A DNA stretch of 64,000 bases, from the NCBI RefSeq assembly GCF_044647545.1, contig NZ_CP172818.1; one strand, 5' to 3'. The DNA is from Escherichia coli (lineage in GTDB: Bacteria > Pseudomonadota > Gammaproteobacteria > Enterobacterales > Enterobacteriaceae). Positions 1 through 48,706 of the stretch are shown here, one piece after another; position 1 is the stretch's first letter; the number at the start of each line of letters is the position of its first letter. The position numbers and the translations under genes were made by a program. Under the pieces are notes generated by a model that was given only the letters and a program-made list of their open reading frames with translations, ran no database searches and was not told the DNA's origin.

Positions 1-69
1 AAGGAGGCAGTATGGCAGTTTCAGCAAGAAATCAATTAACCGGAACAGTTACGCAGTAGCAATGGGCGC

Positions 70-390
70 TTGAATGATGAAGTAGAACCGACGCCGCAGG
101 TGTGCAAAACTTGCAATTGTTACACACAGCAGCCAGCAGGCTCTTGGCCGGGAAAAAGGAAAAAAAGGCGCCCCCCCGAAAAAGCCCCCGGGGGGAAACG
201 CGGAAAAGAAAAGCGGGGGGGAAACTCCCCCCCCCCACCCGCTGCGCGGCGCGCGGGCAAACACCCGCGAAGGGCGGGGGGAGCCCCCTCCAAAAAAAAA
301 AAGGGGGGGTTTTAAAATGGGGGGGAAAAAAAAAAAAAAGGAAGGAAAAAAAAACCCCCTAAAAAAAAAACACCAAAAAGGAAAAATTTG
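70..390. other. Anomalous low-complexity tract with long A, G and C homopolymer runs; unlike the rest of the window
   Basis: Direct reading: runs such as a14, c10, g7; the two ORFs across it encode Lys/Arg/Gly/Pro-rich nonsense. Confidence 0.6.
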
Positions 391-412
391 CCGGAGAGTA
401 TGGCTCTCCGGC
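390..412. terminator. GC-rich hairpin (gccggagag / ctctccggc) downstream of ygbA, with T-rich flanks on both strands; putative bidirectional terminator
   Basis: Inverted repeat read directly. Confidence 0.5.
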
Positions 413-416
413 AGAT

Positions 417-761
417 TTATTTCTTTGGACGATATTTTTCTGGCAACTCCGGCACCGGACGCTTGTCATCGATGAGATGACGCACGGTTAAGATCGGATG
501 ACGCCACAGCATTCGCGGCCCGGCCCAACGCATAATCTGTTTCATCTCTTCACGCTTTGCTGGCTGGTAACAGTGCACCGGACACTGCTTACAGGCTGGT
601 TTCTCTTCGCCGAACACACATTTATCCAGCCGCTTTTGCGCGTAGGCAAACAGCGCGTCGTAATGCTCCGGCTCCGCTGACGCCTGCGGGCATTTCGCTT
701 GATAAAGATCGATCATTTTTTTAATCGTCAGTTTTTCACGAGAGATACGCTTGCCGGACAT
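417..761 (-). CDS. ygbA: Small Cys-rich protein YgbA (nitric oxide-responsive in E. coli)
   Basis: 114-aa ORF; position upstream of and divergent from mutS; Cys motifs CPQ and CKQCPVHC. Confidence 0.8.
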   Translation of the reverse strand: MSGKRISREKLTIKKMIDLYQAKCPQASAEPEHYDALFAYAQKRLDKCVFGEEKPACKQCPVHCYQPAKREEMKQIMRWAGPRMLWRHPILTVRHLIDDKRPVPELPEKYRPKK

Positions 762-1047
762 GCTGCCTCCATACTCTTAAGGTGTATTTATATTACAACT
801 TAATTTGAAAGGGGACTATGGCTCTGAAGGAGGAGGTTTATTCAACCGACGCAATTTTGCGTACTTGCTTCATAAGCATCACGCAAAAGCTGCAAAACAG
901 CATCTTTCCCGGAATCACCATCAAGAACTCGCCGTTCGCTTCTTCCCCTGAAATGATTAACTCCGGTATCATGTGCGCCTTATGTGATAACAACGAAAAT
1001 AAAAACCATCACACCCCATTTAATATCAGGGAACCGGACATAACCCC

Positions 1048-3609
1048 ATGAGTGCAATAGAAAATTTCGATGCCCATACGCCCATGATGCAGCAGTATCT
1101 CAAGCTGAAAGCCCAGCATCCCGAGATCCTGCTGTTTTACCGGATGGGCGACTTTTATGAACTGTTTTATGACGACGCAAAACGGGCGTCGCAACTGCTG
1201 GATATTTCACTGACCAAACGCGGTGCTTCAGCGGGAGAGCCAATCCCGATGGCGGGGATTCCCTACCATGCGGTGGAAAACTACCTCGCCAAACTGGTGA
1301 ACCAGGGCGAATCGGTTGCTATTTGTGAACAGATTGGCGATCCGGCGACCAGCAAAGGGCCGGTCGAGCGCAAAGTTGTCCGTATCGTTACGCCGGGCAC
1401 CATCAGCGATGAAGCGCTGTTGCAGGAACGTCAGGACAACCTGCTGGCGGCTATCTGGCAGGACAGTAAAGGTTTCGGCTACGCAACGCTGGATATCAGT
1501 TCCGGTCGTTTTCGCCTGAGCGAACCGGCGGACCGCGAAACGATGGCGGCAGAACTGCAACGTACGAATCCAGCGGAATTACTGTATGCGGAAGATTTCG
1601 CCGAGATGTCGCTGATTGAAGGTCGCCGCGGCCTGCGTCGTCGCCCGCTGTGGGAGTTTGAAATCGACACCGCGCGCCAGCAGTTAAACTTGCAATTTGG
1701 CACTCGCGATCTGGTCGGTTTTGGCGTCGAGAACGCGCCGCGCGGACTTTGTGCCGCCGGTTGTCTGTTGCAATATGCGAAAGATACCCAACGCACGACC
1801 CTGCCGCATATTCGTTCTATCACTATGGAACGTGAGCAGGACAGCATCATTATGGATGCCGCGACGCGTCGTAACCTGGAAATCACCCAGAATCTGGCGG
1901 GTGGTGCGGAAAATACGCTGGCTTCTGTGCTCGACTGCACCGTCACGCCGATGGGCAGCCGTATGCTGAAACGCTGGCTGCATATGCCAGTGCGCGATAC
2001 CCGCGTCTTGCTTGAGCGCCAGCAAACTATTGGCGCATTGCAGGATTTCACCGCCGAGCTGCAGCCGGTACTGCGTCAGGTCGGCGACCTGGAACGTATT
2101 CTGGCGCGTCTGGCTTTACGAACCGCTCGCCCACGCGATCTGGCCCGTATGCGTCACGCTTTCCAGCAACTGCCGGAGCTGCGTGCACTATTAGAAAATG
2201 TCGAAAGCGCACCGGTACAGGCGCTGCGTGAGAAGATGGGCGAGTTTGCCGAACTGCGCGATCTGCTGGAGCGGGCCATTATCGACACACCGCCGGTACT
2301 GGTGCGCGACGGTGGTGTTATCGCGCCGGGCTATAACGAAGAGCTGGATGAGTGGCGGGCGCTGGCTGACGGCGCGACCGATTATCTGGAGCGTCTGGAA
2401 ATCCGCGAGCGTGAACGTACCGGCCTGGACACGCTGAAAGTCGGCTTTAACGCGGTTCATGGTTATTACATTCAGATCAGCCGTGGACAAAGCCATCTGG
2501 CACCCATCAACTATATGCGTCGCCAGACGCTGAAAAACGCCGAACGCTACATTATTCCAGAGCTAAAAGAGTATGAAGACAAAGTACTCACCTCGAAAGG
2601 TAAAGCACTGGCACTGGAAAAACAGCTTTATGAAGAGTTGTTCGACCTGCTGTTGCCGCATCTGGAAGCGTTGCAACAGAGCGCGAGCGCGCTGGCGGAA
2701 CTCGACGTGCTGGTGAACCTGGCGGAACGGGCCTATACCCTGAACTACACCTGCCCGACCTTTATTGATAAACCTGGCATTCGCATTACCGAAGGCCGCC
2801 ATCCAGTGGTTGAACAGGTACTGAACGAACCGTTTATCGCTAACCCGCTAAACCTGTCGCCACAGCGCCGCATGTTGATCATTACCGGTCCGAACATGGG
2901 CGGTAAAAGTACCTATATGCGCCAGACCGCGTTGATTGCGCTGATGGCGTATATCGGCAGCTACGTACCGGCGCAAAAAGTCGAGATTGGCCCGATCGAC
3001 CGTATCTTTACCCGCGTAGGCGCGGCAGACGATCTGGCATCCGGGCGTTCAACCTTTATGGTGGAGATGACCGAAACCGCCAATATTTTACATAACGCCA
3101 CCGAATATAGTCTGGTGTTGATGGATGAGATCGGGCGTGGAACGTCCACTTACGATGGTCTGTCGCTGGCGTGGGCATGCGCGGAAAATCTGGCAAATAA
3201 GATCAAAGCGTTGACGCTGTTTGCTACCCACTATTTCGAGCTGACCCAGTTACCGGAGAAAATGGAAGGCGTCGCCAACGTGCATCTCGATGCGCTGGAG
3301 CACGGCGACACCATTGCCTTTATGCACAGCGTGCAGGATGGCGCGGCGAGCAAAAGCTACGGCCTGGCGGTTGCAGCTCTGGCAGGCGTGCCAAAAGAGG
3401 TTATTAAGCGCGCACGGCAAAAACTGCGTGAGCTGGAAAGCATTTCGCCGAACGCCGCCGCTACACAGGTTGATGGTACGCAGATGTCCCTGCTTTCTGC
3501 GCCAGAAGAAACGTCGCCTGCGGTCGAGGCACTGGAAAACCTCGACCCGGATTCACTGACTCCGCGTCAGGCGCTGGAGTGGATTTATCGGTTGAAGAGT
3601 CTGGTGTAA
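1048..3609 (+). CDS. mutS: DNA mismatch repair protein MutS
   Basis: 853-aa ORF; Walker [10 protein letters not shown]; N-terminal [17 protein letters not shown] matches E. coli MutS. Confidence 0.97.
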
Positions 3610-3615
3610 TAACAA

Positions 3616-3642
3616 TTCCCGATAGTCTTTTGCTATCGGGAA
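3616..3642 (+). terminator. Hairpin (ttcccgatag / ctatcgggaa) just after the mutS stop
   Basis: 10-bp inverted repeat with a 7-nt loop. Confidence 0.5.
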
Positions 3643-3714
3643 TATTAACGACAACTGACGAATCAAATAAAAATACCCTGTATAATAGGAAATCTTATTT
3701 TACAGGGTAAAACC

Positions 3715-4371
3715 ATGCCATCTACACGCTATCAAAAAATTAATGCCCATCACTATCGTTATATATGGGCCGTTGGTGATATTCATGGTGACTATCAATT
3801 ATTACAATCCCGCTTACATCAACTCTCTTTTTGCCCTGAAACCGACTTACTTATTTCCACAGGCGATAATATTGATCGTGGGCCGAAGAGTCTTAACGTG
3901 CTGCACCTGCTAAACCAACCCTGGTTTACGTCGGTTAAAGGCAACCACGAAGCGATGGCGTTGGATGCATTCGAAACTGGCGATGGAAATATGTGGCTTG
4001 CCAGCGGTGGTGACTGGTTTTTCGATTTAAATGATTCAGAGCAACAAGCGGCAATAGATCTGTTGCTGAAATTCCATCACCTTCCACATATTATTGAAGT
4101 TACTAACGACAACACAAAATATGTCATCACACATGCAGATTATCCGGGGAATGAATATCTCTTTGGTAAAGAAATAGCGGAGAGCGAATTACTCTGGCCT
4201 GTTGATCGTGTGCAGAAATCGCTTAATGGCGAGTTACAACAAATAAACGGCGCTGATTATTTTATATTTGGACATATGGTGTTTGATAACATTCAGACGT
4301 TCGCAAACCAGATTTATATTGATACCGGATCGCCGAAAAGCGGGCGGCTGTCATTTTATAAAATAAAGTAG
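3715..4371 (+). CDS. pphB: Serine/threonine protein phosphatase 2 (PPP family)
   Basis: 218-aa ORF; metallophosphatase motifs GDIHGD, GDNIDRG, GNHE. Confidence 0.9.
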   Translation: MPSTRYQKINAHHYRYIWAVGDIHGDYQLLQSRLHQLSFCPETDLLISTGDNIDRGPKSLNVLHLLNQPWFTSVKGNHEAMALDAFETGDGNMWLASGGDWFFDLNDSEQQAAIDLLLKFHHLPHIIEVTNDNTKYVITHADYPGNEYLFGKEIAESELLWPVDRVQKSLNGELQQINGADYFIFGHMVFDNIQTFANQIYIDTGSPKSGRLSFYKIK

Positions 4372-4372
4372 T

Positions 4373-4398
4373 CTCATGCTTCTTCTGTGAAGCATGAG
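4373..4398. terminator. Hairpin (ctcatgcttc / gaagcatgag) between the convergent genes pphB and ygbI
   Basis: Inverted repeat read directly; no clear T-run on the plus strand. Confidence 0.4.
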
Positions 4399-4420
4399 TA
4401 ACCGAGATGTTCTGCAGGCC

Positions 4421-5190
4421 CCTACTCATTTTTCGCTACCAGCAAAGAGAGATCCTGCTTCGCCAGCACGCAACTGGCGCTCTCCGGCGAAGCCGCATAT
4501 CTAATAATCTGATCAAACTAGTAATGGTAACGCCAGCCATGTCGCCACCTGACCATATTTCGTCGCATCACAGACCAAAACTCGCTGGCGGCTGGCACTG
4601 GCAATCGCCCGTTTCACCGTGACTTTATCTTTCCGCTGGCGTAAATCCCCCGCACACTCCATGACGATGCAGAAATAAAAACCTGATCAATCATCAGGCT
4701 GCGCAGCATGGTCGCAGCGGCTTCCCCGACACAGGAACGGTTTTCCCGACACACTGCACCGCCAGTGTGAATAATTGTGCAATTACTGTTGTCAGCAAGT
4801 AGTTCGCAATAACGAAATCGTTTGTGACCACAGTCAGTGACTCCATGTGAATCAGATGCTGTGCTATCGCTAACGTGGTCGTTCCCGCATCCAGATAGAT
4901 ACAACTTTCCGGCTGAACAGACTTTTGCCGCCAGCTTGCCAATAGCCGCTTTTTGCGTCATTGCCAGCGCAGTTTTACCTAAGTTCGCCATGCGCCACGC
5001 GTCCCGGAGACTGGACGCCTCCGGACACCCAGCACAACGGCTCCCTGCTGCTCCAGTTTTTGTAAATCCCGACGAATGGTCATATGTGACACATTACTCA
5101 TTCTGTCCGTTAGTTCAGCAATACTGACAATGCCTTTTTCAGCTTATCTCAAGGATCATCTGGCGACGCTCTACGGGTATCAACTTTTGC
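4421..5190 (-). pseudogene. ygbI: DeoR-family transcriptional regulator YgbI, disrupted by multiple frameshifts in this sequence
   Basis: Segments matching YgbI (IAELTDRMSNVSHMTIRRDLQKLEQQGAVVL; VSGGVQSPGRVAH; KTALAMTQKAAIGKLAA; CIYLDAGTTTLAIAQHLIHMESLTVVTNDFVIANYLL; NSNCTIIHTGGAVCRENRSCVGEAAATMLRSLMIDQVFISASSWSVRG) lie in different frames on the minus strand; longest intact ORF is 125 aa. Confidence 0.75.
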
Positions 5191-5382
5191 TCCTTCCTTT
5201 GTCCTGCTGACATTCTACGCTATTTGCCTGCGAAACGTGCGCGGCGCAACTAACGCTTAGTTCACATAAAATAACACACAATGTTAATTTATGTGAATCA
5301 GCTCACCATATCGTTATCTTCCAGCGCTTATATTCACAATATCAAACAAAATATCACTTAAATTAACCAACAAGGAGAGCAG

Positions 5383-6291
5383 ATGAAAACGGGATCTGAG
5401 TTTCATGTCGGTATCGTTGGCTTAGGGTGAATGGGAATGGGAGCAGCACTGTCATGTGTCACGAGCAGGTCTTTCTACCTGGGGCGCAGACCTGAACAGC
5501 AATGCCTGCGCTACGTTGAAAGAGGCAGGTGCTTGCGGGGTTGCTTGATAACGCCGCGACGTTTGCCGAAAAACTGGACATTATGCTGGTGCTGGTGGTA
5601 AATGCGGCCCAGGTTAAACAGGTGCTGTTTGGTGAAACGGCGTTTGCACAACATCTGAAACCCGGTACGGCAGTAATGGTTTCTTCCACTATCGCTAGTG
5701 CTGATCGCGCAAGAAATTGCTACCGCTCTGGCTGGATTCGATCTGGAAATGCTGGATGCGCCAGTTTCTGGTGGTGCAGTAAAAGCCGCTAACGGTGAAA
5801 TGACTGTCATGGCCTCCGGTAGCGATATTGCCTTTGAACGACTGGCACCCGTGCTGGAAGCCGTTGCCGGAAAAGTTTATCGCATAGGTGCAGAACCGGG
5901 ACTAAAGAGTTCGACCATTAAAGTTCTTCACCAGTTAGCGGGCGTACATATTGCTGCCGGAGCCGAAGCGATGGCACTTGCAGCCCGTGGGATCCCGCTG
6001 GATGTGATGTATGACGTCGTGACCAATGCCGCCGGAAATTCCTGGATGTTCGAAAACCAGATACGTCATGTGGTGGATGGCGATTACACCCCGCATTCAG
6101 CCGTCGATATTTTTGTTAAGGATCTTGGTCTGGTTGCCGATACAGCCAAAGCCCTGCACTTCCCGCTGCCATTGGCCTCAACAGCATTGAATATGTTCAC
6201 CAGCGCCAGTAACGCGGGTTACGGGAAAGAAGACGATAGCGCAGTTATCAAGATTTTCTCTGGCATCACTCTACCGGGAGCGAAATCATGA
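5383..6291 (+). pseudogene. ygbJ: 3-hydroxyisobutyrate dehydrogenase-family enzyme (L-threonate dehydrogenase YgbJ/LtnD), disrupted by an in-frame TGA and frameshifts
   Basis: MKTGSEFHVGIVGLG followed by TGA at about 5428–5430; homologous pieces in three frames (ORFs 5529..5792 and 5698..6291). Confidence 0.75.
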
Positions 6292-7454
6292 TCAAGATTG
6301 GCGTTATCGCCGATGATTTTACCGGCGCGACGGATATCGCCAGTTTTCTGGTGGAAAACGGTCTACCAACGGTACAAATTAACGGTGTTCCAACAGGTAA
6401 AATGCCGGAAGCAATCGACGCACTGGTGATCAGCCTGAAAACGCGCTCCTGTCCAGTGGTTGAAGCCACACAGCAATCGCTGGCGGCTCTGAGCTGGTTG
6501 CAACAGCAAGGTTGCAAACAGATCTATTTCAAATACTGCTCTACTTTCGACAGTACGGCGAAAGGTAATATTGGCCCGGTTACCGATGCCTTAATGGATG
6601 CTCTCGACACGCCGTTTACGGTCTTCTCTCCGGCCCTGCCGGTCAACGGACGTACGGTTTATCAGGGGTATTTGTTCGTAATGAATCAACTGCTGGCCGA
6701 ATCCGGGATGCGCCATCACCCGGTAAATCCCATGACCGACAGCTATCTTCCCCGTCTGGTTGAAGCGCAATCCACAGGGCGCTGCGGCGTCGTTTCGGCA
6801 CATGTTTTCGAACAAGGTGTGGATGCCGTTCGTCAAGAGCTGGCTCGCTTACAGCAAGAGGGCTACCGCTACGCGGTGCTTGATGCGCTGACCGAACACC
6901 ATCTGGAAATTCAGGGAGAAGCCTTGCGCGATGCCCCACTGGTAACGGGCGGTTCTGGTCTGGCGATTGGCCTGGCCCGGCAGTGGGCGCAAGAAAACGG
7001 TAACCAGGCTCGCAAAGCAGGGCGTCCGCTCGCTGGGCGCGGCGTAGTGCTCTCCGGTTCATGCTCTCAAATGACCAACCGCCAGGTAGCACATTACCGT
7101 CAAATTGCACCAGCCCGTGAAGTTGATGTGGCACGCTGCCTCTCAATTGAAACTCTGGCCGCTTATGCACACGAACTGGCAGAGTGGGTTCTGGGCCAGG
7201 AAAGTGTACTTGCTCCACTGGTTTTTGCCACCGCCAGCACTGACGCATTGGCAGCAATTCAACAGCAATACGGTGCACAAAAAGCCAGTCAGGCAGTAGA
7301 AACACTGTTTTCTCAACTAGCGGCGCGGTTAGCAGCGGAAGGCGTGACACGCTTTATTGTCGCAGGCGGTGAGACCTCCGGCGTAGTCACACAGAGCCTG
7401 GGAATAAAAGGGTTTCATATTGGCCCAACCATTTCCCCGGCGTGCCGTGGGTAA
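6288..7454 (+). CDS. ygbK: Four-carbon acid-sugar kinase family protein (3-oxo-tetronate kinase, YgbK/OtnK)
   Basis: 388-aa ORF; N-terminal MIKIGVIADDFTGATD typical of this kinase family; start overlaps the ygbJ stop. Confidence 0.85.
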   Translation: MIKIGVIADDFTGATDIASFLVENGLPTVQINGVPTGKMPEAIDALVISLKTRSCPVVEATQQSLAALSWLQQQGCKQIYFKYCSTFDSTAKGNIGPVTDALMDALDTPFTVFSPALPVNGRTVYQGYLFVMNQLLAESGMRHHPVNPMTDSYLPRLVEAQSTGRCGVVSAHVFEQGVDAVRQELARLQQEGYRYAVLDALTEHHLEIQGEALRDAPLVTGGSGLAIGLARQWAQENGNQARKAGRPLAGRGVVLSGSCSQMTNRQVAHYRQIAPAREVDVARCLSIETLAAYAHELAEWVLGQESVLAPLVFATASTDALAAIQQQYGAQKASQAVETLFSQLAARLAAEGVTRFIVAGGETSGVVTQSLGIKGFHIGPTISPACRG

Positions 7455-7545
7455 ACGCACTGGATAAGCCTGTCTCACTCGCCCTTAAATCTGGCAACTT
7501 CGGTGATGACGCCTTTTTTTCACGAGCCCAAAGAGAGTTTTTATC

Positions 7546-8184
7546 ATGAGCGATTTCGCAAAAGTAGAGCAGTCTTTGCGAGAGGAGATGACGCGGATTG
7601 CCAGTTCATTCTTTCAGCGCGGCTATGCAACCGGTTCGGCTGGCAATCTGTCGCTGCTTTTACCTGACGGGAATTTACTGGCGACACCGACAGGTTCATG
7701 CCTGGGCAATCTCGATCCGCAGCGGCTTTCCAAAGTCGCCGCGGATGGCGAATGGTTAAGTGGTGACAAACCCTCGAAAGAGGTGCTCTTTCATCTGGCG
7801 CTGTATCGCAACAATCCGCGCTGTAAAGCGGTGGTGCATTTGCACAGCACATGGTCGACGGCGCTTTCCTGCCTGCAAGGGCTGGACAGCAGCAACGTTA
7901 TTCGTCCGTTCACACCATACGTGGTGATGCGGATGGGAAATGTCCCGCTGGTGCCTTATTACCGACCGGGCGATAAACGCATCGCACAGGATCTGGCGGA
8001 ACTGGCAGCAGACAATCAGGCTTTTTTACTGGCAAATCATGGCCCAGTGGTTTGCGGTGAAAGCCTGCAAGAAGCCGCCAACAATATGGAAGAGCTGGAG
8101 GAAACGGCAAAGCTGATTTTTATTCTCGGTGACCGCCCGATCCGTTATCTGACCGCAGGTGAAATTGCGGAATTAAGGAGTTAA
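7546..8184 (+). CDS. ygbL: Class II aldolase/adducin-family protein (3-oxo-tetronate 4-phosphate decarboxylase, YgbL/OtnC)
   Basis: 212-aa ORF; operon context. Confidence 0.85.
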
Positions 8185-8188
8185 TGCA

Positions 8189-8965
8189 ATGCCTCGTTTT
8201 GCAGCTAATTTATCCATGATGTTCACCGAAGTGCCTTTTATTGAACGCTTCGCCGCAGCGCGAAAAGCCGGGTTCGATGCTGTGGAATTTCTGTTTCCCT
8301 ATAACTACTCCACCCTGCAAATCCAAAAGCAACTGGAGCAAAACCATCTGACACTGGCGCTGTTCAATACCGCTCCCGGAGATATTAATGCGGGGGAATG
8401 GGGATTATCCGCCCTTCCCGGACGTGAGCACGAAGCACACGCAGACATCGACCTGGCACTGGAATATGCATTGGCGCTCAATTGTGAACAAGTCCATGTG
8501 ATGGCAGGCGTCGTGCCCGCTGGCGAAGATGCTGAACGGTACCGGGCAGTATTTATCGATAATATCCGCTACGCTGCCGACCGCTTTGCGCCACACGGCA
8601 AGCGAATATTAGTTGAAGCACTCAGCCCCGGCGTTAAGCCTCATTATCTCTTCTCCAGCCAGTATCAGGCACTGGCTATTGTTGAAGAGGTTGCGCGAGA
8701 TAACGTGTTTATTCAACTAGATACTTTTCATGCGCAAAAAGTAGATGGCAACCTGACGCATTTAATCCGCGACTACGCCGGGAAATATGCGCACGTACAA
8801 ATTGCCGGACTACCTGATCGACATGAACCGGACGATGGAGAAATCAACTATCCGTGGCTGTTCCGCCTGTTCGATGAGGTGGGATATCAGGGCTGGATCG
8901 GTTGTGAATATAAACCTCGTGGCCTCACCGAAGAAGGGCTTGGCTGGTTTGACGCCTGGCGCTAA
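8189..8965 (+). CDS. ygbM: Hydroxypyruvate isomerase-like TIM-barrel protein (2-oxo-tetronate isomerase, YgbM/OtnI)
   Basis: 258-aa ORF; operon context. Confidence 0.85.
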
Positions 8966-9053
8966 TTCGTTAAATCCCTAATTACAACGTACCCATACAT
9001 CCCCCCATCTACGGATGGGGTAGGTTAACTATAACTTTCAGACAGGGTTTCCC

Positions 9054-10418
9054 ATGTCCACAATTACATTGTTATGCATTGCGTTAGCTGGCGTAATCAT
9101 GCTGTTGCTGCTGGTCATCAAGGCAAAGGTACAACCATTCGTTGCTTTGCTCCTCGTCAGCCTGTTAGTCGCACTTGCGGCAGGTATACCGGCGGGCGAA
9201 GTGGGTAAAGTGATGATCGCCGGGATGGGCGGTGTGCTTGGTTCCGTCACTATTATTATTGGTCTGGGCGCTATGCTGGGGCGTATGATCGAACACTCTG
9301 GTGGTGCAGAGTCACTGGCTAATTATTTCAGTCGCAAGTTAGGTGACAAACGAACTATCGCTGCGCTGACTCTGGCAGCGTTCTTCCTCGGTATTCCCGT
9401 CTTCTTTGATGTCGGCTTTATTATTCTTGCGCCAATCATTTACGGTTTTGCCAAGGTTGCCAAAATATCGCCACTCAAATTTGGCCTGCCTGTCGCTGGG
9501 ATCATGCTCACTGTTCACGTGGCGGTACCGCCGCATCCAGGCCCTGTCGCCGCAGCGGGGTTACTCCACGCAGACATCGGCTGGCTAACCATCATCGGTA
9601 TTGCGATTTCTATTCCCGTAGGGGTTGTTGGCTACTTTGCAGCGAAAATAATCAATAAGCGCCAATATGCGATGTCAGTAGAAGTACTGGAACAGATGCA
9701 ACTGGCTCCGGCCAGTGAGGAAGGCGCGACAAAATTAAGCGATAAAATAAATCCACCGGGCGTCGCGCTGGTCACCTCGCTAATTGTTATTCCTATCGCG
9801 ATTATCATGGCGGGTACGGTTTCCGCAACACTGATGCCGCCTTCGCATCCCCTGCTTGGTACGCTACAGCTGATCGGCTCACCAATGGTAGCTCTAATGA
9901 TTGCGCTGGTGCTGGCATTCTGGTTATTGGCTTTACGTCGCGGCTGGAGCTTACAACACACCAGCGACATTATGGGCTCAGCGCTTCCTACTGCGGCGGT
10001 AGTGATTTTGGTTACTGGTGCTGGAGGGGTATTTGGCAAAGTGCTGGTGGAATCGGGCGTCGGCAAAGCCCTTGCCAACATGCTACAAATGATTGACCTG
10101 CCTCTGTTACCAGCCGCATTTATTATTTCACTGGCGCTGCGTGCATCGCAGGGGTCAGCAACCGTAGCAATACTGACAACCGGCGGGTTACTCTCAGAAG
10201 CGGTGATGGGATTGAATCCGATTCAGTGCGTATTGGTGACGCTGGCAGCCTGCTTTGGTGGGCTTGGTGCGTCACATATTAATGACTCAGGGTTCTGGAT
10301 TGTGACCAAATATCTGGGGTTGTCGGTAGCAGACGGTCTGAAAACCTGGACAGTGTTAACGACCATTCTCGGTTTTACCGGATTCTTAATTACCTGGTGC
10401 GTATGGGCGGTAATTTGA
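9054..10418 (+). CDS. ygbN: GntP-family acid-sugar permease
   Basis: 454-aa highly hydrophobic ORF. Confidence 0.85.
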   Translation: MSTITLLCIALAGVIMLLLLVIKAKVQPFVALLLVSLLVALAAGIPAGEVGKVMIAGMGGVLGSVTIIIGLGAMLGRMIEHSGGAESLANYFSRKLGDKRTIAALTLAAFFLGIPVFFDVGFIILAPIIYGFAKVAKISPLKFGLPVAGIMLTVHVAVPPHPGPVAAAGLLHADIGWLTIIGIAISIPVGVVGYFAAKIINKRQYAMSVEVLEQMQLAPASEEGATKLSDKINPPGVALVTSLIVIPIAIIMAGTVSATLMPPSHPLLGTLQLIGSPMVALMIALVLAFWLLALRRGWSLQHTSDIMGSALPTAAVVILVTGAGGVFGKVLVESGVGKALANMLQMIDLPLLPAAFIISLALRASQGSATVAILTTGGLLSEAVMGLNPIQCVLVTLAACFGGLGASHINDSGFWIVTKYLGLSVADGLKTWTVLTTILGFTGFLITWCVWAVI

Positions 10419-10430
10419 CCTTAATAAAAA

Positions 10431-10457
10431 GGTCCGATGGGCATCGGACCTTTTATT
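10431..10457. terminator. Rho-independent bidirectional terminator between ygbN and rpoS (ggtccgatg ggc atcggacc + TTTTATT; A-run upstream)
   Basis: Perfect 9-bp stem flanked by A and T tracts. Confidence 0.8.
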
Positions 10458-10511
10458 GTGCACAGAAAAGGCCAGCCTCATAAGAGACTGGCCTTTATGA
10501 CAGATGCTTAC

Positions 10512-11504
10512 TTATTCGCGGAACAGCGCTTCGATATTCAGCCCCTGCGTTTGCAGGATTTCGCGCAAACGGCGCAGGCCTTCAACCTGAATCTGGCGAA
10601 CACGTTCACGGGTGAGGCCAATTTCACGACCTACATCTTCCAGTGTTGCCGCTTCGTACCCCAGCAAACCGAATCGACGTGCCAGTACTTCACGCTGTTT
10701 GGCGTTCAGCTCGAACAGCCATTTGACGATGCTCTGCTTCATATCGTCATCTTGCGTGGTATCTTCCGGACCGTTCTCTTTTTCATCGGCCAGGATGTCC
10801 AGCAACGCTTTTTCGGAATCACCACCCAGCGGGGTGTCTACCGAGGTAATGCGCTCGTTAAGACGAAGCATACGGCTGACGTCATCAACTGGCTTATCCA
10901 GTTGCTCTGCGATCTCTTCCGCACTTGGTTCATGGTCCAGTTTATGGGACAACTCGCGTGCGGTTCGCAGGTAAACGTTCAGCTCCTTTACGATGTGAAT
11001 CGGCAAACGAATAGTACGGGTTTGGTTCATAATCGCCCGTTCGATCGTCTGGCGAATCCACCAGGTTGCGTATGTTGAGAAGCGGAAACCACGTTCCGGG
11101 TCAAACTTCTCTACCGCGCGGATCAGCCCCAGGTTGCCCTCTTCGATAAGATCCAGCAAAGCCAGACCACGATTGCCATAACGGCGGGCAATTTTTACCA
11201 CCAGACGCAAGTTACTCTCGATCATCCGGCGGCGAGAGGCAACATCTCCACGCAGTGCGCGACGCGCAAAATAAACTTCTTCTTCGGCCGTTAACAGTGG
11301 TGAATAACCAATCTCACCAAGGTAAAGCTGAGTCGCGTCCAGCACACGCTGTGTGGCTCCCTGCGATAACAGTTCCTCTTCGGCCAAATCGTTATCACTG
11401 GGTTCCTCTTCTACTAAGGCCTTTTCGTCAAAAACCTCAACTCCGTTCTCATCAAATTCCGCATCTTCATTTAAATCATGAACTTTCAGCGTATTCTGAC
11501 TCAT
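10512..11504 (-). CDS. rpoS: RNA polymerase sigma factor RpoS (sigma-38)
   Basis: Sigma-70-family protein starting [21 protein letters not shown] (330 aa); the ORF track extends 12 codons upstream to an earlier ATG. Confidence 0.95.
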
Positions 11505-11566
11505 AAGGTGGCTCCTACCCGTGATCCCTTGACGGAACATTCAAGCAAAAGCCTGGTTCCGCCGAT

Positions 11567-12706
11567 TTATCGCTGCGGCAAATAACGCAGCGGGTTTACG
11601 GATTTCCCCTTGTAACGAATTTCAAAATGCAAGCGTGTTGAACTGGTTCCGGTGCTACCCATGGTTGCTATTTTTTGCCCCGCCTTCACTTCTTGTTGTT
11701 CCCGGACCAGCATTGTGTCGTTATGGGCGTAGGCACTCAGGTAATCATCATTATGTTTGATGATAATCAGATTACCGTAGCCGCGCAGCGCGTTACCGGC
11801 ATAAACAACGCGGCCATCTGCAGTCGCGATAATTGCCTGTCCTTTGCTGCCTGCGATATCAATCCCCTTGTTGCCCCCCTCAGAAGCGCCAAAGGTTTCG
11901 ATCACTTTGCCCTCAGTCGGCCAGCGCCAGGTGGAGATAGGCGTACTGGTTGATGTACTGCTGACAGTCGGCTCGGTTGTGCTTGCTGTTGGTACCGTTA
12001 CAGGCGCTGTGACCGTGGTCGCAGTTGGCTTGTTGTTCGGCAACATTTTGTTAGCACTCTGTTCACCCGAAGACTCAGAATACGTAATTGTCGGTTGCGA
12101 AGCAACAGCAACGGTGGAATTTTGTGCAGGCTTGATCACAACTCCTTGCTCTGCTGCGTCGGCCTGGGTAATGGCATTTCCGCCAGTGATTGGCGTACCG
12201 GAAGCATTCCCCACCTGTAAGGTCTGACCGACGTTCAGCGCATATGGTGCCTGAATATTGTTGCGCTGAGCAAGGTCACGGAAATCGTTGCCAGTAATCC
12301 AGGCGATATAGAAAAGTGTGTCGCCTTTTTTCACGGTGTATGTACTGCCGCTATAACTGCCTTTCGGAATGTTCCCATACTGACGGTTGTAGACGATTCG
12401 TCCGTTTTCCATCTGTACCGGCTGCTGAGCTACTGGCTGCACAGGCTGGATTTGCGGTTGTTGAGTAGCCTGAATTTGTGGCTGCTGTACCGGCTGAATT
12501 TGCGGTTGCTGCGCTGTAGACGTCGTCCCCATTTTCGACGGCGGCGTAATCAACATACCAGAATTGGTATTTGTAGGCGCATTGCCATTAACGGAGCTGA
12601 CCGGTGCCGGTGGATTTGAAGTGTCAGAACAGCCTGCCAGCCATAGCGAAACCAGTGACAAAGCCGCAATGCGGCGAACGGTGAATTTTGGGCTTCCCGC
12701 GCTCAT
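11567..12706 (-). CDS. nlpD: Murein hydrolase activator lipoprotein NlpD (LysM + M23 peptidase-like)
   Basis: 379-aa ORF; lipobox LAGC; Gln/Pro-rich repeat; C-terminal M23 domain. Confidence 0.95.
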
Positions 12707-20533: not shown

Positions 20534-21571
20534 ATGTTTTCCGCATTGCGCCACCGTACCGCTGCCCTGGCGCTCGGCGTATGCTTTATTCTCCCCGTAC
20601 ACGCCTCGTCACCTAAACCTGGCGATTTTGCTAATACCCAGGCACGACATATTGCTACTTTCTTTCCGGGACGCATGACCGGAACTCCTGCAGAAATGTT
20701 ATCTGCCGATTATATTCGCCAACAGTTTCAGCAAATGGGTTATCGCAGTGATATTCGGACATTTAATAGTCGGTATATTTATACCGCCCGCGATAATCGC
20801 AAGAGCTGGCATAACGTGACGGGAAGTACGGTGATTGCCGCTCATGAAGGCAAAGCTCCGCAGCAGATTATCATTATGGCGCATCTGGATACTTACGCCC
20901 CGCTGAGCGATGCTGACGCCGATGCCAATCTCGGCGGGCTGACGTTACAAGGAATGGATGATAACGCCGCAGGTTTAGGTGTCATGCTGGAATTGGCAGA
21001 ACGCCTGAAAAATACGCCTACCGAGTATGGTATTCGATTTGTGGCGACCAGCGGCGAAGAGGAAGGGAAATTAGGCGCTGAGAATTTACTCAAGCGGATG
21101 AGTGACACCGAAAAGAAAAATACGCTGCTGGTGATTAATCTCGATAACTTAATTGTTGGCGATAAATTGTATTTCAACAGTGGTGTAAAAACCCCTGAAG
21201 CAGTAAGGAAATTAACGCGCGACAGGGCACTGGCAATTGCGCGTAGTCATGGAATTGCCGCAACGACCAATCCGGGTTTGAATAAAAATTATCCGAAGGG
21301 TACTGGCTGTTGTAATGACGCCGAAGTTTTCGACAAAGCCGGTATTGCGGTACTTTCGGTGGAGGCGACCAACTGGAATCTTGGAAATAAGGATGGTTAT
21401 CAGCAACGCTCAAAAACACCGGCCTTCCCGGCGGGAAATAGCTGGCATGATGTAAGGCTTGATAATCAACAGCATATTGATAAGGCGCTTCCTGGAAGAA
21501 TAGAACGTCGTTGCCGTGATGTTATGCGGATAATACTACCGCTGGTGAAGAAACTGGCGAAGGCGTCTTGA
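20534..21571 (+). CDS. iap: Alkaline phosphatase isozyme conversion aminopeptidase (M28 family)
   Basis: 345-aa ORF with signal peptide; immediately upstream of the CRISPR array. Confidence 0.92.
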   Translation: MFSALRHRTAALALGVCFILPVHASSPKPGDFANTQARHIATFFPGRMTGTPAEMLSADYIRQQFQQMGYRSDIRTFNSRYIYTARDNRKSWHNVTGSTVIAAHEGKAPQQIIIMAHLDTYAPLSDADADANLGGLTLQGMDDNAAGLGVMLELAERLKNTPTEYGIRFVATSGEEEGKLGAENLLKRMSDTEKKNTLLVINLDNLIVGDKLYFNSGVKTPEAVRKLTRDRALAIARSHGIAATTNPGLNKNYPKGTGCCNDAEVFDKAGIAVLSVEATNWNLGNKDGYQQRSKTPAFPAGNSWHDVRLDNQQHIDKALPGRIERRCRDVMRIILPLVKKLAKAS

Positions 21572-21652
21572 TGGGTTTGAAAATGGGAGCTGCGAGTTCT
21601 ACCGCAGGGGCGGGGAATTCTAAGTGATATCCATCATCGCATCCAGTGCGCC

Positions 21653-22418
21653 CGGTTTATCCCCGCTGGCGCGGGGAATCGCCGGAAAATATTCATGATG
21701 GGGGTGGTTATGGCGGTTTATCCCCGCTGGCGCGGGGAATCTCGGGGCCGCCGTGTTCACATTTGCCTAATTTCCCGGTTTATCCCCGCTGGCGCGGGGA
21801 ACTCTATCATAAACGAGGTGAATTTATGGAAACTGTACGGTTTATCCCCGCTGGCGCGGGGAACTCGTTAGTTTTCGAAAAAATTGTTTTCTTACGCTGG
21901 TTTATCCCCGCTGGCGCGGGGAACTCAATTATTGTCGTGGACAAATGCCGGTGTTATTGCGGTTTATCCCCGCTGGCGCGGGGAACTCATTCGAGACAAT
22001 CTCTCAAAATTAATGAAATCGGTTTATCCCCGCTGGCGCGGGGAACTCCAGGTATCAAGAAATAATCGAAGCCTTCATGACGGTTTATCCCCGCTGGCGC
22101 GGGGAACTCAATTGATTGCTGGGTGATATTGGAAAATGTTGCGGTTTATCCCCGCTGGCGCGGGGAACTCCTACCGTACAGATCCTGACCGGATATTATT
22201 TTTTTGCGGTTTATCCCCGCTGGCGCGGGGAACTCCGACGTTCGACGAAATGCGCGATGGCGGTCGGCGGTTTATCCCCGCTGGCGCGGGGAACTCTTCT
22301 GCGTCCCCGATGTCTGGCCCGACTGGTCCGGTTTATCCCCGCTGGCGCGGGGAACTCTATATGACCGGAACACTTCCGCCTGACGTTTGCGGTTTATCCC
22401 CGCTGGCGCGGGGAACTC
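21653..22418 (-). CRISPR. CRISPR array, type I-E repeat (plus strand CGGTTTATCCCCGCTGGCGCGGGGAACTC), 13 repeats and 12 spacers; leader at the high-coordinate end
   Basis: Repeat starts at about 21653, 21714, 21776, 21838, 21898, 21960, 22020, 22081, 22142, 22207, 22268, 22329, 22390; the two leader-distal repeats end GAATCG/GAATCT. Confidence 0.97.
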
Positions 22419-22523
22419 TCTAAAAGTATACATTTGTTCTTAAAGCATTTTTTCCCATAAAAACAACCCACCAACCTTAATGTAACATTTCCTTATTATT
22501 AAAGATCAGCTAATTCTTTGTTT
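22419..22523 (-). promoter_or_regulatory. AT-rich CRISPR leader between the last repeat and cas2
   Basis: AT-rich non-coding segment adjoining the consensus repeat; leader role is from established knowledge of type I-E arrays. Confidence 0.7.
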
Positions 22524-23727
<1,204 letters not shown>

Positions 23728-23742
23728 TTTATTACACCTAAA

Positions 23743-24342
23743 TCACAGTGGAGCCAAAGATAGCAAGCCACATCCCATCGATTTAGCTGGCCCAATACCT
23801 TGCTGTACAAGATCTATTAACGCTGGCGCGTCGTTGATGGTGATCACCCCTTCAAAGCAAACCGTTTGAATCTTTCCACTTTTACCATCACCAGAAAAAT
23901 ACTGTGGCCGTTCCGATATGGGATGCACATCTTCAACGCGCGCCGCATTGCCCAATTTACGTTGCAACCACGCGATTTGTTCTGCTTCTTTTATTAACGG
24001 AACCCGACAGCGTTTAATATTCCCTTTACTGTCCAGGCGCTTTTGATTGTCGAGAATAGTTTTGATCGGATTTGCCCGAAGCCGAAAATAGAGTGGAACA
24101 CCAACCTGAAGTTGAAATTCAACCTGTTTAGTTTTAATGACTGTCGCAACGGCAGTTGAAACAGGCATTTGCGCTGACTGCAATAAAACATGACAGCCTT
24201 CTGGTGTGTTTCGCTTCTCAACATGAAAAAGAAAATCACGAGCAGCATCCGGTCTGTTTGGAAATAAATGCCATAATCCCTGGTGAAGTTGGTAAAGATC
24301 CCTGCTCCAGGCCCTGGCAATGATGACTTTACTGAGATACAT
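23743..24342 (-). CDS. casE: Cascade pre-crRNA endoribonuclease CasE (Cas6e)
   Basis: 199-aa ORF starting MYLSKVIIARAW. Confidence 0.95.
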   Translation of the reverse strand: MYLSKVIIARAWSRDLYQLHQGLWHLFPNRPDAARDFLFHVEKRNTPEGCHVLLQSAQMPVSTAVATVIKTKQVEFQLQVGVPLYFRLRANPIKTILDNQKRLDSKGNIKRCRVPLIKEAEQIAWLQRKLGNAARVEDVHPISERPQYFSGDGKSGKIQTVCFEGVITINDAPALIDLVQQGIGPAKSMGCGLLSLAPL

Positions 24343-25003
24343 CCATACCTCCTTTAATCACATACCATTCTCGGGAAGCAAATTGTCGAGGTAAGGTGAT
24401 CATCGGTTCGTCGCGCGCCGTAAATTTTAAATAATGCCCTGTAACTGATTCCTCACTATAAATATCGCCGCCAACGGGCTCATAATTTAATAGCGCCTTC
24501 TGAGGATCCGATGCCTTACATGTCCCCAAAAAAAGCGGGTGTGTTAGTGGGCAACTTCTCCGCCCCAGGTAGGGTGTATACCGAGGCTTTAATACTGCTT
24601 TTTCAAGTTCTGAGATAACCATCGTTGCATGGGGTGTTAACCAGAGAGCGACGGTAAAGGAGGCATCACATAAATATTCGCGCCATGTTTGAATCGTTTC
24701 ATGACTTTTCAAACCACGGTAATCTTCTCGCGCTCCAAGGACTGTATGGTAATCACGCAACCCCGTTACAGACACACGACGATCGTCAAGAATGAGTTCA
24801 TCGCAGCGCACTGCAAATTGCACACTCTCTGATAACGCCTGTAATGAAGAAGTATCATCACGTTGGATCCCAAGACAAGCACCGAGTAGCCCTAATAACC
24901 CGCTTCGGGTCGGAAATCTTCCGGTAGGTCGCGTTCCTTCAAAGGTCGGCTGCCCCCAGGCTTGCATTGGCCCAGCAAGCCGCAAGATCAAATAAGATCT
25001 CAT
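24329..25003 (-). CDS. casD: Cascade subunit CasD (Cas5e)
   Basis: Start taken at MRSYLILRLAGPMQAWG (224 aa); overlaps the casE start. Confidence 0.92.
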   Translation of the reverse strand: MRSYLILRLAGPMQAWGQPTFEGTRPTGRFPTRSGLLGLLGACLGIQRDDTSSLQALSESVQFAVRCDELILDDRRVSVTGLRDYHTVLGAREDYRGLKSHETIQTWREYLCDASFTVALWLTPHATMVISELEKAVLKPRYTPYLGRRSCPLTHPLFLGTCKASDPQKALLNYEPVGGDIYSEESVTGHYLKFTARDEPMITLPRQFASREWYVIKGGMDVSQ

Positions 25004-25005
25004 GT

Positions 25006-26097
25006 TCACGCCTCGCCATTATTACGAACCCAGGATTTTAACTGTTCTAAAGTAGGCATTTGTTTAACTTGAGCAGTAATTGGGTCTACATCAGATAAGC
25101 TGAATTGCGCAGCAGCTCCGTTCAGACCATATCCATTGGCAACGCGATCCCAATATTGATTAAAAGCCTGTATAGACGGTTGCAAAAAGCCATCTTTCGC
25201 TTTAACCGCTTTTTCAAAAGCATTTGCCATAGAAAGTGGCATATCGGAGAAATTAACCATTACCATATCCGCAGGGTTAAAAGCGGCATAAGTACGCTGT
25301 TTTGCTCCAGGGACCTCTGTTGCCAGCATATGAACAACATGGGTTGCAATTTCCAGAGCCTGCTCCCTGGAGGCACCACCTAAATTTTCCTGAAGTTGAG
25401 CGAGGTTAATGTTGGCATAACGATAAAAAACACCCGATGAAAATTCCTGAGTTCCCAGATGTGCAGAACCTTGTTCCTGTAAATCATCTACAGCGGTGAA
25501 CCAGTCAATATCAGAATCAACCTGATGAGTAGTGATCGCATGCGCAATGGACATTGCACCATCAACTTTTCCCAACTCACTCATCATGCCGCTGGTTGCC
25601 ATTCTTCCACTAAGCGCAATATCAACACCCTGCTGTAAATTCACACGTATGGCGGCAATATCTTCCTTAAGAACTTTGAGCAGCTTTTTATCATCCAGAT
25701 TATCAGCCTCTGCTTTTGCAACCTGCTCACAGAACCAGGCTATTTCTCCCACAACCCAGGGAGTAACCGCATCGGCAGAAATCTTTTCGGCTTCATCAAC
25801 TAATTTACCGGAGAGCAGCGCTAATGTCTTATCGATGATTTTTTGGTCAAAACGTTCACCAAGTTTTTGCCGAAGAACATCACGTAATTGTGCAAGATGA
25901 ATTGTTCTGAGACTGGATTCACCAATATTTTGTGCGTAATAATCACTTTTACGCATCGCACGTTTAAGGCTTTGACTTGAAATTCTTACTCGTCTTTTCC
26001 CGCCGAAAATAGCGTCTTTCTGCATGTTCATATCGTCGCGGTTCAGACATGAAGGGCTGTGAGAAATCAGAACATGAATATTGATAAAGTTAGACAT
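25006..26097 (-). CDS. casC: Cascade backbone subunit CasC (Cas7e)
   Basis: 363-aa ORF. Confidence 0.95.
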
Positions 26098-26109
26098 AGA
26101 AAGGTTTCC

Positions 26110-26592
26110 TTACGCATTTTTGTTTGTGGTCAATACAAAATCTTCCAGAAGTTGCTGGCGTTCGCGCTTTCCCCACCAGGTCAACATCCTGGCCATTAAT
26201 GGCCAGTCAAGTACGGGTTCGGCGTGAGTAAGTAATCGACGTAACTGGACCATATCGGCTGTTCTGTCAGCCCGAATTAATTGAAAGATACGGCGCTCGT
26301 TAATTCTTCCACTATTGGCTAAAGCTCTTCCCAACGAGATACCTGTTGTTTGCTCCGGTTTTTTGTCCTGATGTCGGATGACATTCTTTCCTGCGCTCAG
26401 GCAAAACACCATGCGCAAAAGAGCCTGCTGGTGACGTGGGTTTTCCCAACCAAAAGGTTGCACCAGCCTATAAAACGCAGGGATATCGCGTAATTCATCA
26501 GGTTCTGAAACACGTCTAATTTGCGCACATGCTCCATTATCCAGTTGTTGCCAGGCTCGATATAAAGCCATTGCATCAATTTCATCAGCCAT
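26110..26592 (-). CDS. casB: Cascade small subunit CasB (Cse2)
   Basis: 160-aa ORF. Confidence 0.95.
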   Translation of the reverse strand: MADEIDAMALYRAWQQLDNGACAQIRRVSEPDELRDIPAFYRLVQPFGWENPRHQQALLRMVFCLSAGKNVIRHQDKKPEQTTGISLGRALANSGRINERRIFQLIRADRTADMVQLRRLLTHAEPVLDWPLMARMLTWWGKRERQQLLEDFVLTTNKNA

Positions 26593-28093: not shown

Positions 28094-28507
28094 TTGTTCT
28101 CCTTCATATGCTCCGACATTTCTCCTGCATTTCTATACGTCGGCACACTTCCGTTATCGGTAAAAACAAAGAAAAAATACGGCGTAATTAATTCAATAAT
28201 CACATTCACTGCAAAAATATATTCATTGGTTTAATACAATTAACCTATGCATATATTAAGATGTGTTGAATTGTTTAAAGACAATAATGCATGCATTTCA
28301 AATCTGCAAGTTATTCGTTTTATTATCAAAGAAATTTTTAGTTATAATAATTACCATAAATTTTATTACATAAAATATTCATACTGTGAATATAAAATCT
28401 CATACCGGGAAATTAAAAGAAGATGTACATTGTGCACCTTCCCTACTTAAGTAGGGATAAACCGTTATTGGTCTTGTTATCGTCATTGATACCAATCATT
28501 CCCGAAG
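28094..28507 (-). promoter_or_regulatory. Strongly AT-rich cas3–casA intergenic region; site of the casABCDE12 promoter (Pcas), known in E. coli K-12 to be H-NS-silenced and LeuO-activated
   Basis: AT-rich 414-bp gap read directly; promoter role from established knowledge. Confidence 0.7.
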
Positions 28508-47511: not shown

Positions 47512-47964
47512 AACTACACTCGATGTCTTTAGAATAAAAGACAATACGAATCGCACTTTATCAATTTTCACTTAAAGTATGAACTGGATATCTTTATTCA
47601 TAAGAACTATTCATCAACAGCGTATAGAGGCGGTTATGTAAAACCACTCATTAGCCTCAAAACAAAGACAAACTTCCAGATTTATTACTTAATCAATGAA
47701 TAACAAGCTTAAAAAATACACTGTTATTCTAAAGAAAAAATTAACAGGCATTAATTAATATTAAAAAAAATAATATATTAAAATTTCTTAACGGTTTAAG
47801 GATTATACAAATAACACTTTGATTAAATTTGATTTTTTGTATCGATAATTGTGAACTTATCTGGCATGGAGAACTATTTTGAACATGAGGTGTTATGTGG
47901 ATATGTTGCTTATTACAAGTACAGCTAATATAAAAACTTGAGAAAGAGATAACGGGTTATATGG

Positions 47965-48367: not shown

Positions 48368-48706
48368 TCTAAACATAACCTATTATTAATTAATGATTTT
48401 TTAAGCCAGTCACAATCTACCAACTTTATAGTATCACACAAACAACACATCCATTATGTTAAAGAGCACTTAATCCATTGATTAAAAAGGTAAATATTTA
48501 AAATAACTCTATACAAACTAAAATCTACCAAACTTTACCGCAATAATTTTCACTCCAGCGAAAAATTAACGCCACAGAATTTGTAGAGAATGATAATGAT
48601 TAGTTCAGGATGGGCAAGATGGATGAGTTTTCAGAGGCGACAAACAATATAAATGAGTAGAAGTCTTTACAGGTTCCACCCATTTATAACGCTTATAAAT
48701 GTTTAA
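48368..48706 (-). promoter_or_regulatory. AT-rich leader of the second CRISPR array
   Basis: AT-rich segment adjoining the most conserved repeat; begins tctaaa like the array 1 leader (tctaaaag). Confidence 0.6.

Follow-up and report, generated by a model that had tools for sequence, protein, structure and literature searches.

The pphB gene (prpB) of Escherichia coli is quite probably an old horizontal acquisition whose alleles were later exchanged within the mosaic mutS-rpoS region, the stem-loops on its two sides being 3'-end structures. The phage-type family to which the gene belongs, the empty sites in related genera, its differing positions (that in Salmonella included), a repeat-flanked copy and a divergence incongruent with that of mutS make this the best reading of the data. 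Together with the base composition, they bear out the old horizontally acquired insertion that had been proposed earlier from the letters of this DNA alone (the sequence-only reading). The direction and timing of the transfer are inferred.

The window, i.e., the whole stretch of 64,000 nucleotides that was analysed, starts in the hyc/hyp-mutS-rpoS region of E. coli. According to the list of open reading frames (ORFs), ygbA occupies positions 417-761 on the minus strand and mutS (853 aa) positions 1048-3609 on the plus strand. On the same strand follows pphB (3715-4371), predicted to encode a 218-aa lambda NinI-like Ser/Thr protein phosphatase 2 of the PPP family. Behind pphB come a frameshift-disrupted ygbI on the minus strand (4422-5190; ORF fragments only, with 31 mismatches and 18 gap columns against intact ygbI), ygbJ-N and rpoS. 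The window carries a rare allele of mutS, 100% identical to that of E. coli FDAARGOS_497 and about 94% identical to those of most E. coli. From 386 up to the middle base of the pphB stop codon (4370) the window equals FDAARGOS_497 at 100% identity, and beyond it the divergence is total. This breakpoint between the conserved mutS-pphB block and a variable cassette (4370-4371, inside the stop codon) falls on the same base in every pad-type locus compared. To the right of it the window has the 6.1-kb ygbI-ygbN cassette (4371-10465, plus strand), one of the alternative fillings of the interval between pphB and rpoS, where FDAARGOS_497 has padDCB-marR, genes that are also present in other Escherichia species. 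Every locus compared (ygb vs. pad) has the cassette junctions at 4370/4371 and 10465/10466. The window equals FDAARGOS_497 again from 10466 onwards, the two CRISPR arrays excepted, at least as far as 59439, the end of the comparison.

Stretches 1-385 and 4371-6200 of the window look corrupted or chimeric rather than biological. Positions 1-385 are an increasingly degraded copy of the neighbouring TOBE-domain gene, fading into homopolymer runs. The first 1.8 kb of the ygb cassette contain dense mismatches and indels, with ygbI broken and an in-frame stop in ygbJ, and identity to this part does not exceed 96% in any complete E. coli genome; the rest of the cassette is 99.9-100% identical to a phylogroup-A-like strain. 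The cassette junctions coincide exactly with indel borders, and an otherwise identical genome has pad genes there. Such stretches can produce false 'pseudogenes' and false junctions. Given this pattern, caution is needed in reading anything into the 'pseudogenes' ygbI and ygbJ or into the right-hand junction.

The sequence-only reading described pphB and its flanks as more AT-rich than mutS and the ygb genes and named windowed GC and codon-usage analysis as the check. Both analyses agree with that description. In 300-nt windows, GC is 0.53-0.62 in mutS, drops to 0.38-0.45 over 3500-4400 and returns to about 0.50-0.52 in the ygb genes. The coding sequence of pphB has a GC of 0.416 (41.6%) and a GC3 of 0.40, as compared to 0.562 and 0.626, respectively, for mutS, its GC-rich left neighbour. 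Among the 46 long ORFs of the window (mean GC 0.510, sd 0.042), pphB is the second lowest, 2.3 sd below the mean. When codons for the PphB amino-acid sequence were resampled from the pooled usage of the other window genes, the expected GC3 was 0.513 ± 0.033, so that the observed value corresponds to z = −3.6, and pphB is distinguishable from its neighbours. The Karlin B codon-bias distance of pphB is not significant (0.33 vs. a null of 0.30 ± 0.04), the gene being too short for it. The mutS-pphB spacer (3610-3714) is still poorer in GC, with 0.32, the mutS hairpin included. The low GC is not peculiar to this allele: pphB has a GC of 0.41-0.44 in every host examined, and mutS 0.555-0.585 in those hosts. 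Thus, in GC and in GC3, pphB deviates from its host as is expected of a horizontal islet. Third-position singletons in pphB comprise 22 AT-to-GC and 13 GC-to-AT changes, a polarity that is not significant at such small counts and that would predict an equilibrium GC3 near 0.53. It weakly suggests an incomplete, ongoing drift to host composition.

The PphB allele of the window is, by its sequence, a member of the PphB/lambda-NinI group of the PPP family and a predicted phosphatase. It scores 456.3 bits against the NCBIfam equivalog NF007425 (cutoff 332) and 61.9 bits against Pfam PF00149 (Metallophos; cutoff 21.5), and it matches PHROG 246 'NinI-like serine-threonine phosphatase' with E = 9e-73. 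Its alignment with the lambda phosphatase structure 1G5B covers the full length (E = 8e-58). A search for the catalytic patterns GDxHG, GDxxDRG, GNHE and (I/L/V)D(S/T)G found the metallophosphoesterase motifs GDIHG, GDNIDRG, GNHE and IDTG intact and aligned with those of 1G5B. Relatives of PphB are encoded in 1327 phage records, the best of them 46% identical. A 56%-identical paralogue is located in an E. coli mobile island, together with AlpA, a reverse transcriptase, RadC and TacA. Between alleles the dN/dS of pphB is 0.11-0.29, as compared to 0.01 for mutS. These ratios indicate an apparently functional gene under purifying selection, with a constraint much weaker than that on mutS. PrpB was grouped with the lambda phosphatase long ago (PMC535813). 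Mn2+-dependent phosphatase activity of the E. coli and Salmonella PrpB was reported by Missiakas and Raina (1997) and Shi et al. (2001), both as cited in PMC535813.

Presence or absence of pphB across Escherichia genomes had been named as a further check on the insertion. Within E. coli the gene is not variably present: it was found in 5411 of 5426 complete genomes (99.7%), in 5376 of them over at least 80% of its length. It is a species-core gene, and what varies is its alleles and both of its flanks. Identity to the window allele is at least 99% in 70 genomes, 95-99% in 1345, 90-95% in 3774 and 80-90% in 223. Downstream of pphB, 4587 of the 5426 genomes have the K-12-type ygbI-N cassette, and the remainder mostly have padDCB and the MarR-family gene. 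Upstream, in the one genome with a divergent allele that was examined, a Sel1-repeat gene sits between mutS and pphB, and the whole spacer, hairpin and palindrome included, is replaced. The 223 genomes with 80-90% alleles are likely carriers of this Sel1-repeat gene.

Between genera the picture is that expected of an islet, with empty sites and a patchy distribution that is not seen within E. coli. A contig scan by exact peptide words identified 8 close loci, and the outgroups were found through MutS instead. The order mutS-pphB-pad-rpoS occurs in other Escherichia species and clades and in Pseudocitrobacter, one lineage keeping only padD. In Escherichia sp. E1V33, a 177-aa gene on the opposite strand occupies the interval between mutS and pphB. 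In K. spallanzanii the order is mutS-Sel1-hok-pphB-hok-pad, and pphB is bracketed by a 373-bp direct repeat formed by two hok loci that are 91% identical to each other. The mutS-pphB spacers of E. coli show no similarity to these Klebsiella hok/sok loci. Four outgroup loci without pphB were compared, and only these four: K. pneumoniae has mutS-hok-padDCB-marR and C. freundii mutS-hok-padC, each with a single hok, padDCB-marR directly follows mutS in Cronobacter, and a fimbrial operon lies behind mutS in K. aerogenes. Salmonella carries a 59%-identical pphB upstream of mutS, at the border of SPI-1 (PMC7232297).

Horizontal transfer has made the mutS-rpoS region a mosaic (PMC4209514), and the history of pphB differs from that of mutS, the flanking core gene, in both identity matrices and dS. 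For the MutS protein, identity amounts to 99% within E. coli and to 95% against Salmonella; for PphB the corresponding values are 85-92% and 59%. Similarly, at the nucleotide level the pphB genes of Salmonella, K. spallanzanii and E. coli are 59-62% identical to one another, as compared to 82-84% for mutS. In Pseudocitrobacter the relation is reversed, pphB being 89% identical to an E. coli allele and mutS 86%. The Sel1-type E. coli shares 84-86% identity with other E. coli in pphB and 94-96% in mutS; against the window allele, in one genome pair, dS is 0.74 for pphB and 0.28 for mutS.

Part of this evidence would also fit another history, in which the AT-richness is upheld by recurrent and fairly recent import of pphB alleles from an AT-rich mobile pool, sometimes as a Sel1-pphB or hok-pphB cassette. 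The spread of the E. coli alleles over four identity classes, the excess of dS in the Sel1-type allele, the cross-genus similarity of pphB above that of mutS, the varying upstream fillings and the hok duplication around pphB in K. spallanzanii all speak for it. However, no donor pool is visible, as no phage relative exceeds 46% identity, and the alleles of the Escherichia clade all fall into one group of 84-94% identity. Moreover, fast evolution together with intragenus recombination could explain the divergence, the latter being documented for mutS in references given in PMC4209514. We regard this history as possible and somewhat doubtful.

A purely vertical origin appears unlikely. It would make pphB ancestral in the mutS neighbourhood of the Enterobacteriaceae, moved across mutS once and lost repeatedly, with the AT-richness resulting from weak selection or low expression. 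Indeed, pphB adjoins mutS in Escherichia, Pseudocitrobacter, K. spallanzanii and Salmonella, a review calls it 'ancestral at this locus' (PMC7232297), and its GC3 holds at 0.385-0.42 despite a dS of 0.5-0.7 between alleles. Its near-universal presence in E. coli fits as well, and so does the failure to find insertion scars: there is no tRNA gene at 1-12000, no convincing flanking direct repeat or target-site duplication and no integrase ORF in the window. Nevertheless, pphB diverges between Salmonella, K. spallanzanii and E. coli far beyond mutS, and its positions and contexts differ among them. At the four other outgroup loci the mutS-(hok)-pad junction is intact or its place is taken by other genes, and no pphB remnant is left. 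Among more distant proteins, those most similar to PphB are phage NinI proteins and the mobile-island paralogue, and the identity matrices of pphB and mutS are discordant. Old acquisition followed by allele exchange accounts better for these observations.

The sequence-only reading also had pphB bounded by two hairpins. Both stems are real and stable, and neither marks a border of the insertion: the left one belongs to the 3' end of mutS and the right one to the ygb cassette. The mutS 3' stem-loop (3615-3643, plus strand) has a 12-bp stem (3615-3626/3632-3643) and a 5-nt loop, with −17.6 kcal/mol and z = −6.6. Behind the stop codon of mutS, its core CCCGA(Y)(R)G...C(Y)(R)TCGGG is also present in Salmonella, C. 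freundii, E1V33 and E. albertii, and in Salmonella and C. freundii it is not followed by pphB, hence this hairpin predates pphB or is independent of it. The second is a perfect 10-bp stem-loop (4373-4398; stem 4373-4382/4389-4398; −16.0 kcal/mol, z = −5.3) between the convergent pphB on the plus and ygbI on the minus strand. It lies inside the chimeric-looking stretch of the window. The same hairpin is found in phylogroup-A-like and K-12-type genomes, whereas all pad-type loci, including FDAARGOS_497 with its 100% identical mutS-pphB block, have a different terminator-like hairpin with a T-run. This shows that the right hairpin is part of the K-12-type ygb cassette. Since local structure of −15 kcal/mol or lower occurs within 70 nt of 21 of the 46 gene ends in the window, hairpin bracketing of pphB by itself says nothing. 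A terminator scan found a T-run on the minus strand only (3643-3615; 4398-4373), weak in the case of 4373-4398. On the plus strand neither outer hairpin is followed by a U-tract, the tails being AUAUUAAC and UAACCGAG. Both outer hairpins may nevertheless act as terminators.

It is very improbable that the outer hairpins are the physical borders of an inserted element, att-like or REP-type recombination sites: variant breakpoints do lie beside them, on the left directly behind the stop codon or hairpin of mutS and on the right inside the stop codon of pphB, and the cargo behind the left one does differ between taxa, but the two hairpins are unrelated in sequence, the left core occurs without pphB behind it, comparable hairpins are found at many other gene ends, and for the right one, absent from pad-type strains with the same pphB, the idea is largely refuted. 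A more speculative view would treat the mutS 3' stem-loop as a recurrent landing site, behind which pphB, Sel1-repeat genes, hok/sok and the gene of a 177-aa secreted protein have settled. The Sel1-pphB pairs and the direct repeats of hok around the K. spallanzanii gene suggest that pphB itself may be a small travelling cassette, and the palindrome described below may insulate its expression from mutS read-through. We consider this improbable.

Between the mutS hairpin and pphB lies an AT-rich spacer (3644-3714, plus strand) that includes the pphB promoter region. One candidate promoter is TTAACG (3645-3650)-17-TAAAAA (3668-3673). The same TTAACG-17-TAAAAA promoter was predicted for K-12 in a genomic SELEX study, which mapped binding sites of both the RpoD holoenzyme and H-NS to the mutS-pphB spacer (PMC3946193), and its prediction corresponds to window 3645-3673. 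Additionally, pphB is listed among the CRP SELEX targets (PMC3105977). The other candidate is a perfect TATAAT at 3681-3686, which has no good -35. This TATAAT is situated in the left arm of an imperfect 36-bp palindrome (3674-3709, plus strand; arms 3674-3690 and 3693-3709) whose 17-nt arms are 88% complementary and which can fold with −18.5 kcal/mol (z = −5.3). The right arm contains the Shine-Dalgarno AGGG (3704-3707), 7 nt before the ATG at 3715. An inverted repeat over the pphB promoter and ribosome-binding site (RBS) had been noticed before at about 3684-3708; it is real and conserved, and its true extent is larger. The palindrome occurs once in the 64-kb window, with 0 expected in shuffles.

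Across the Escherichia species and Pseudocitrobacter the arms of the palindrome are invariant and the loop is variable, and no compensatory change was found in the stem. In E. albertii two uncompensated changes weaken it to −7.9 kcal/mol. No hairpin was found upstream of pphB in Salmonella, K. spallanzanii, the mobile-island paralogue, the Sel1-type E. coli or E1V33, so the palindrome is not a general feature of pphB genes. A scan of 3400-4700 against Rfam returned sub-threshold noise only, with a best score of 23 bits vs. a gathering score of 66. The LexA operator is CTGT-N8-ACAG, and the TyrR operator is TGTAAA-N6-TTTACA. By eye and against consensus sequences, the palindrome does not suit LexA (spacing of 20 instead of 8) or TyrR (14 instead of 6), and its half-sites are poor for CRP. 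The most economical reading is that the spacer carries pphB's own promoter and that the palindrome would mask the RBS in mRNA continuing from mutS past its hairpin, which lacks a U-tract. With no covariation in the arms, a symmetric DNA operator over the -10 box and an RNA hairpin are equally possible. This conserved palindrome over the -10 box and RBS is the sole element of the locus for which no published explanation was found.

Under the preferred reading of old acquisition and later allele exchange, the events could be as follows. A phosphatase gene derived from a phage or mobile element would have been inserted just behind the existing mutS 3' hairpin and before the ancestral pad/marR genes, in the ancestor of Escherichia and a few neighbouring lineages. 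There pphB presumably became fixed and was kept by purifying selection, remaining AT-rich, with a promoter spacer that in K-12 binds H-NS. Later exchanges in the recombination-prone mutS-rpoS region would have substituted pphB alleles and changed the flanking DNA, with a Sel1-repeat gene, the 177-aa gene or nothing upstream and the pad or the ygb cassette downstream. The outer stem-loops would be the 3' ends of the flanking units (mutS on one side, the convergent pphB and ygbI on the other), i.e., terminators or RNA-stabilising hairpins and not scars. The palindrome may be a cis element peculiar to this lineage, part of the promoter and 5' UTR of pphB.

The mutS-rpoS region, which serves in E. 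coli typing, is a textbook hot spot of recombination and indels, and its polymorphism was reportedly studied by LeClerc (1999), Herbelin (2000), Culham and Wood (2000) and Kotewicz (2003). That this intergenic region is polymorphic in enteric bacteria was also described by Ewers (2014; PMC4209514). A lambda-type phosphatase gene, pphB/prpB, within the mutS-rpoS mosaic is already known biology, and with the phosphatase characterised and the region well studied the significance of the present data is otherwise small. They add that the variability reaches the mutS-pphB junction and the pphB alleles themselves, and that pphB, a probable old acquisition documented here, has turned species-core and yet stays AT-rich, with a promoter spacer bound by H-NS in K-12. 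The literature on the region appears to centre on the rpoS-proximal part, and the variability between mutS and pphB (Sel1, 177-aa gene, hok) and the divergence of pphB alleles seem to be lightly covered there.

The locus can be compared with three known systems. The first is the polymorphic mutS-rpoS region itself, with its mosaic mutS and its alternative cassettes between pphB and rpoS (6.1-kb ygb vs. about 2.9-kb pad/slyA-like), and the breakpoints in the window are as expected from it. The second comprises the lambda Ser/Thr phosphatase (NinI/ORF221; 1G5B) and PrpA/PrpB (PphA/PphB), with which PphB has its length and motifs in common, the alignment being full-length. Unlike lambda NinI, the pphB of the window is chromosomal, stands without a surrounding prophage and shares no more than 46% identity with any phage copy. 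The third is that of genomic islands and H-NS-silenced xenogeneic genes. Unlike classical islands, pphB is a single 0.66-kb gene fixed throughout the species, and it lacks a tRNA, an integrase and direct repeats. Like them, it combines low GC, phage-type cargo, an H-NS site in K-12 (PMC3946193) and a patchy distribution between genera.

Between positions 4371 and 10465, that is, between pphB (3715-4371, plus strand) and rpoS, the window carries the ygbI-N cassette of the K-12 type, where E. coli FDAARGOS_497, which is otherwise 100% identical, has padDCB-marR. The cassette junctions coincide exactly with the borders of the indel. Errors within the cassette cluster at 4401-6200; ygbI is frameshifted, and ygbJ contains an in-frame TGA. 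The segment 6290-10465 shows 99.9-100% identity to a phylogroup-A-like strain. A match of >96% identity to 4372-6290 was found in none of the 5426 complete E. coli genomes. The ygbI-N stretch is probably chimeric or corrupted, and ygbI and ygbJ are probably not true pseudogenes.

The beginning of the window (1-385) is a copy of a TOBE-domain gene, limited to its 3′ portion, that becomes increasingly degraded along its length. Up to about position 150 this copy has small deletions and is otherwise near-perfect; after that, it dissolves into poly-A, poly-C, and poly-G runs. The segment has the appearance of an artefact of the sequence or its assembly. At position 386, the identity to FDAARGOS_497 returns abruptly to 100%. 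Within 10466-59439, the two differ only at the two CRISPR arrays (~21500-22500 and ~47900-48500), which lie on either side of the type I-E cas operon. With a GC content of 0.43-0.50, the cas genes themselves (22810-31174) are AT-rich. The sole gene of the window exceeding pphB in AT-richness is ygcG (49627-50544; GC 0.412, GC3 0.38), which may be a further compositionally atypical gene.

Three stem-loops are located around pphB: the mutS 3′ hairpin (3615-3643), the palindrome of the pphB promoter (3674-3709), and the hairpin between pphB and ygbI (4373-4398). Since in all three the T-run following the stem-loop is better on the minus than on the plus strand, it is possible that they terminate antisense transcription entering from the direction of ygbI.

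A third type of the locus occurs in E. coli A3176 (NZ_CM163382.1; 3443-4987 of locus L004, represented also by L003). Here mutS is followed by a different terminator hairpin, an AT-rich Sel1-repeat gene encoding 287 amino acids, and a pphB allele that is 84% identical and devoid of the palindrome. This Sel1-type locus is probably that of the ~223 E. coli genomes of the 80-90% pphB class. A minimal variant is present in E. coli SCPM-O-B-8794 (6656-6998 of its locus): padC, padB, and marR are deleted, and padD alone is left between pphB and rpoS.

In Klebsiella spallanzanii, a Sel1-repeat gene likewise lies between mutS and pphB, its protein being ~30% identical to that of A3176. A hok/sok (type I toxin) locus is found on each side of pphB (6455-8198 of loci L015/L016), and the pair forms a 373-bp direct repeat of 91% identity. 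The same spot in K. pneumoniae and C. freundii is occupied by a single hok locus without pphB. A PphB paralogue (56% identical) is encoded at 7001-7657 of two E. coli contigs (L017/L018) in a mobile island, where its neighbours are AlpA, a reverse transcriptase, a 1283-aa protein, RadC, DUF2787, and the TacA antitoxin.

Two metagenome-assembled genomes, represented by the contigs DXKH01000072.1 and RKCM01000024.1, are labelled ‘Citrobacter sp.’ and ‘Oscillospiraceae bacterium’. The mutS-pphB sequence of these contigs is plainly that of E. coli, which suggests mislabelling or binning contamination. The former, 100% identical to the window, is of the pad type.

The mutS allele of the window (1048-3609, plus strand) is rare: identity of at least 99% was observed in only 61 of 5418 records, and most records are at ~94%. 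Its dS relative to other E. coli is 0.28-0.32, which equals the distance to an Escherichia cryptic-clade genome. In contrast to the divergent mutS, rpoS and nlpD show 98.7-99% identity. Such a rare, divergent allele fits the horizontal transfer that has been documented for mutS.
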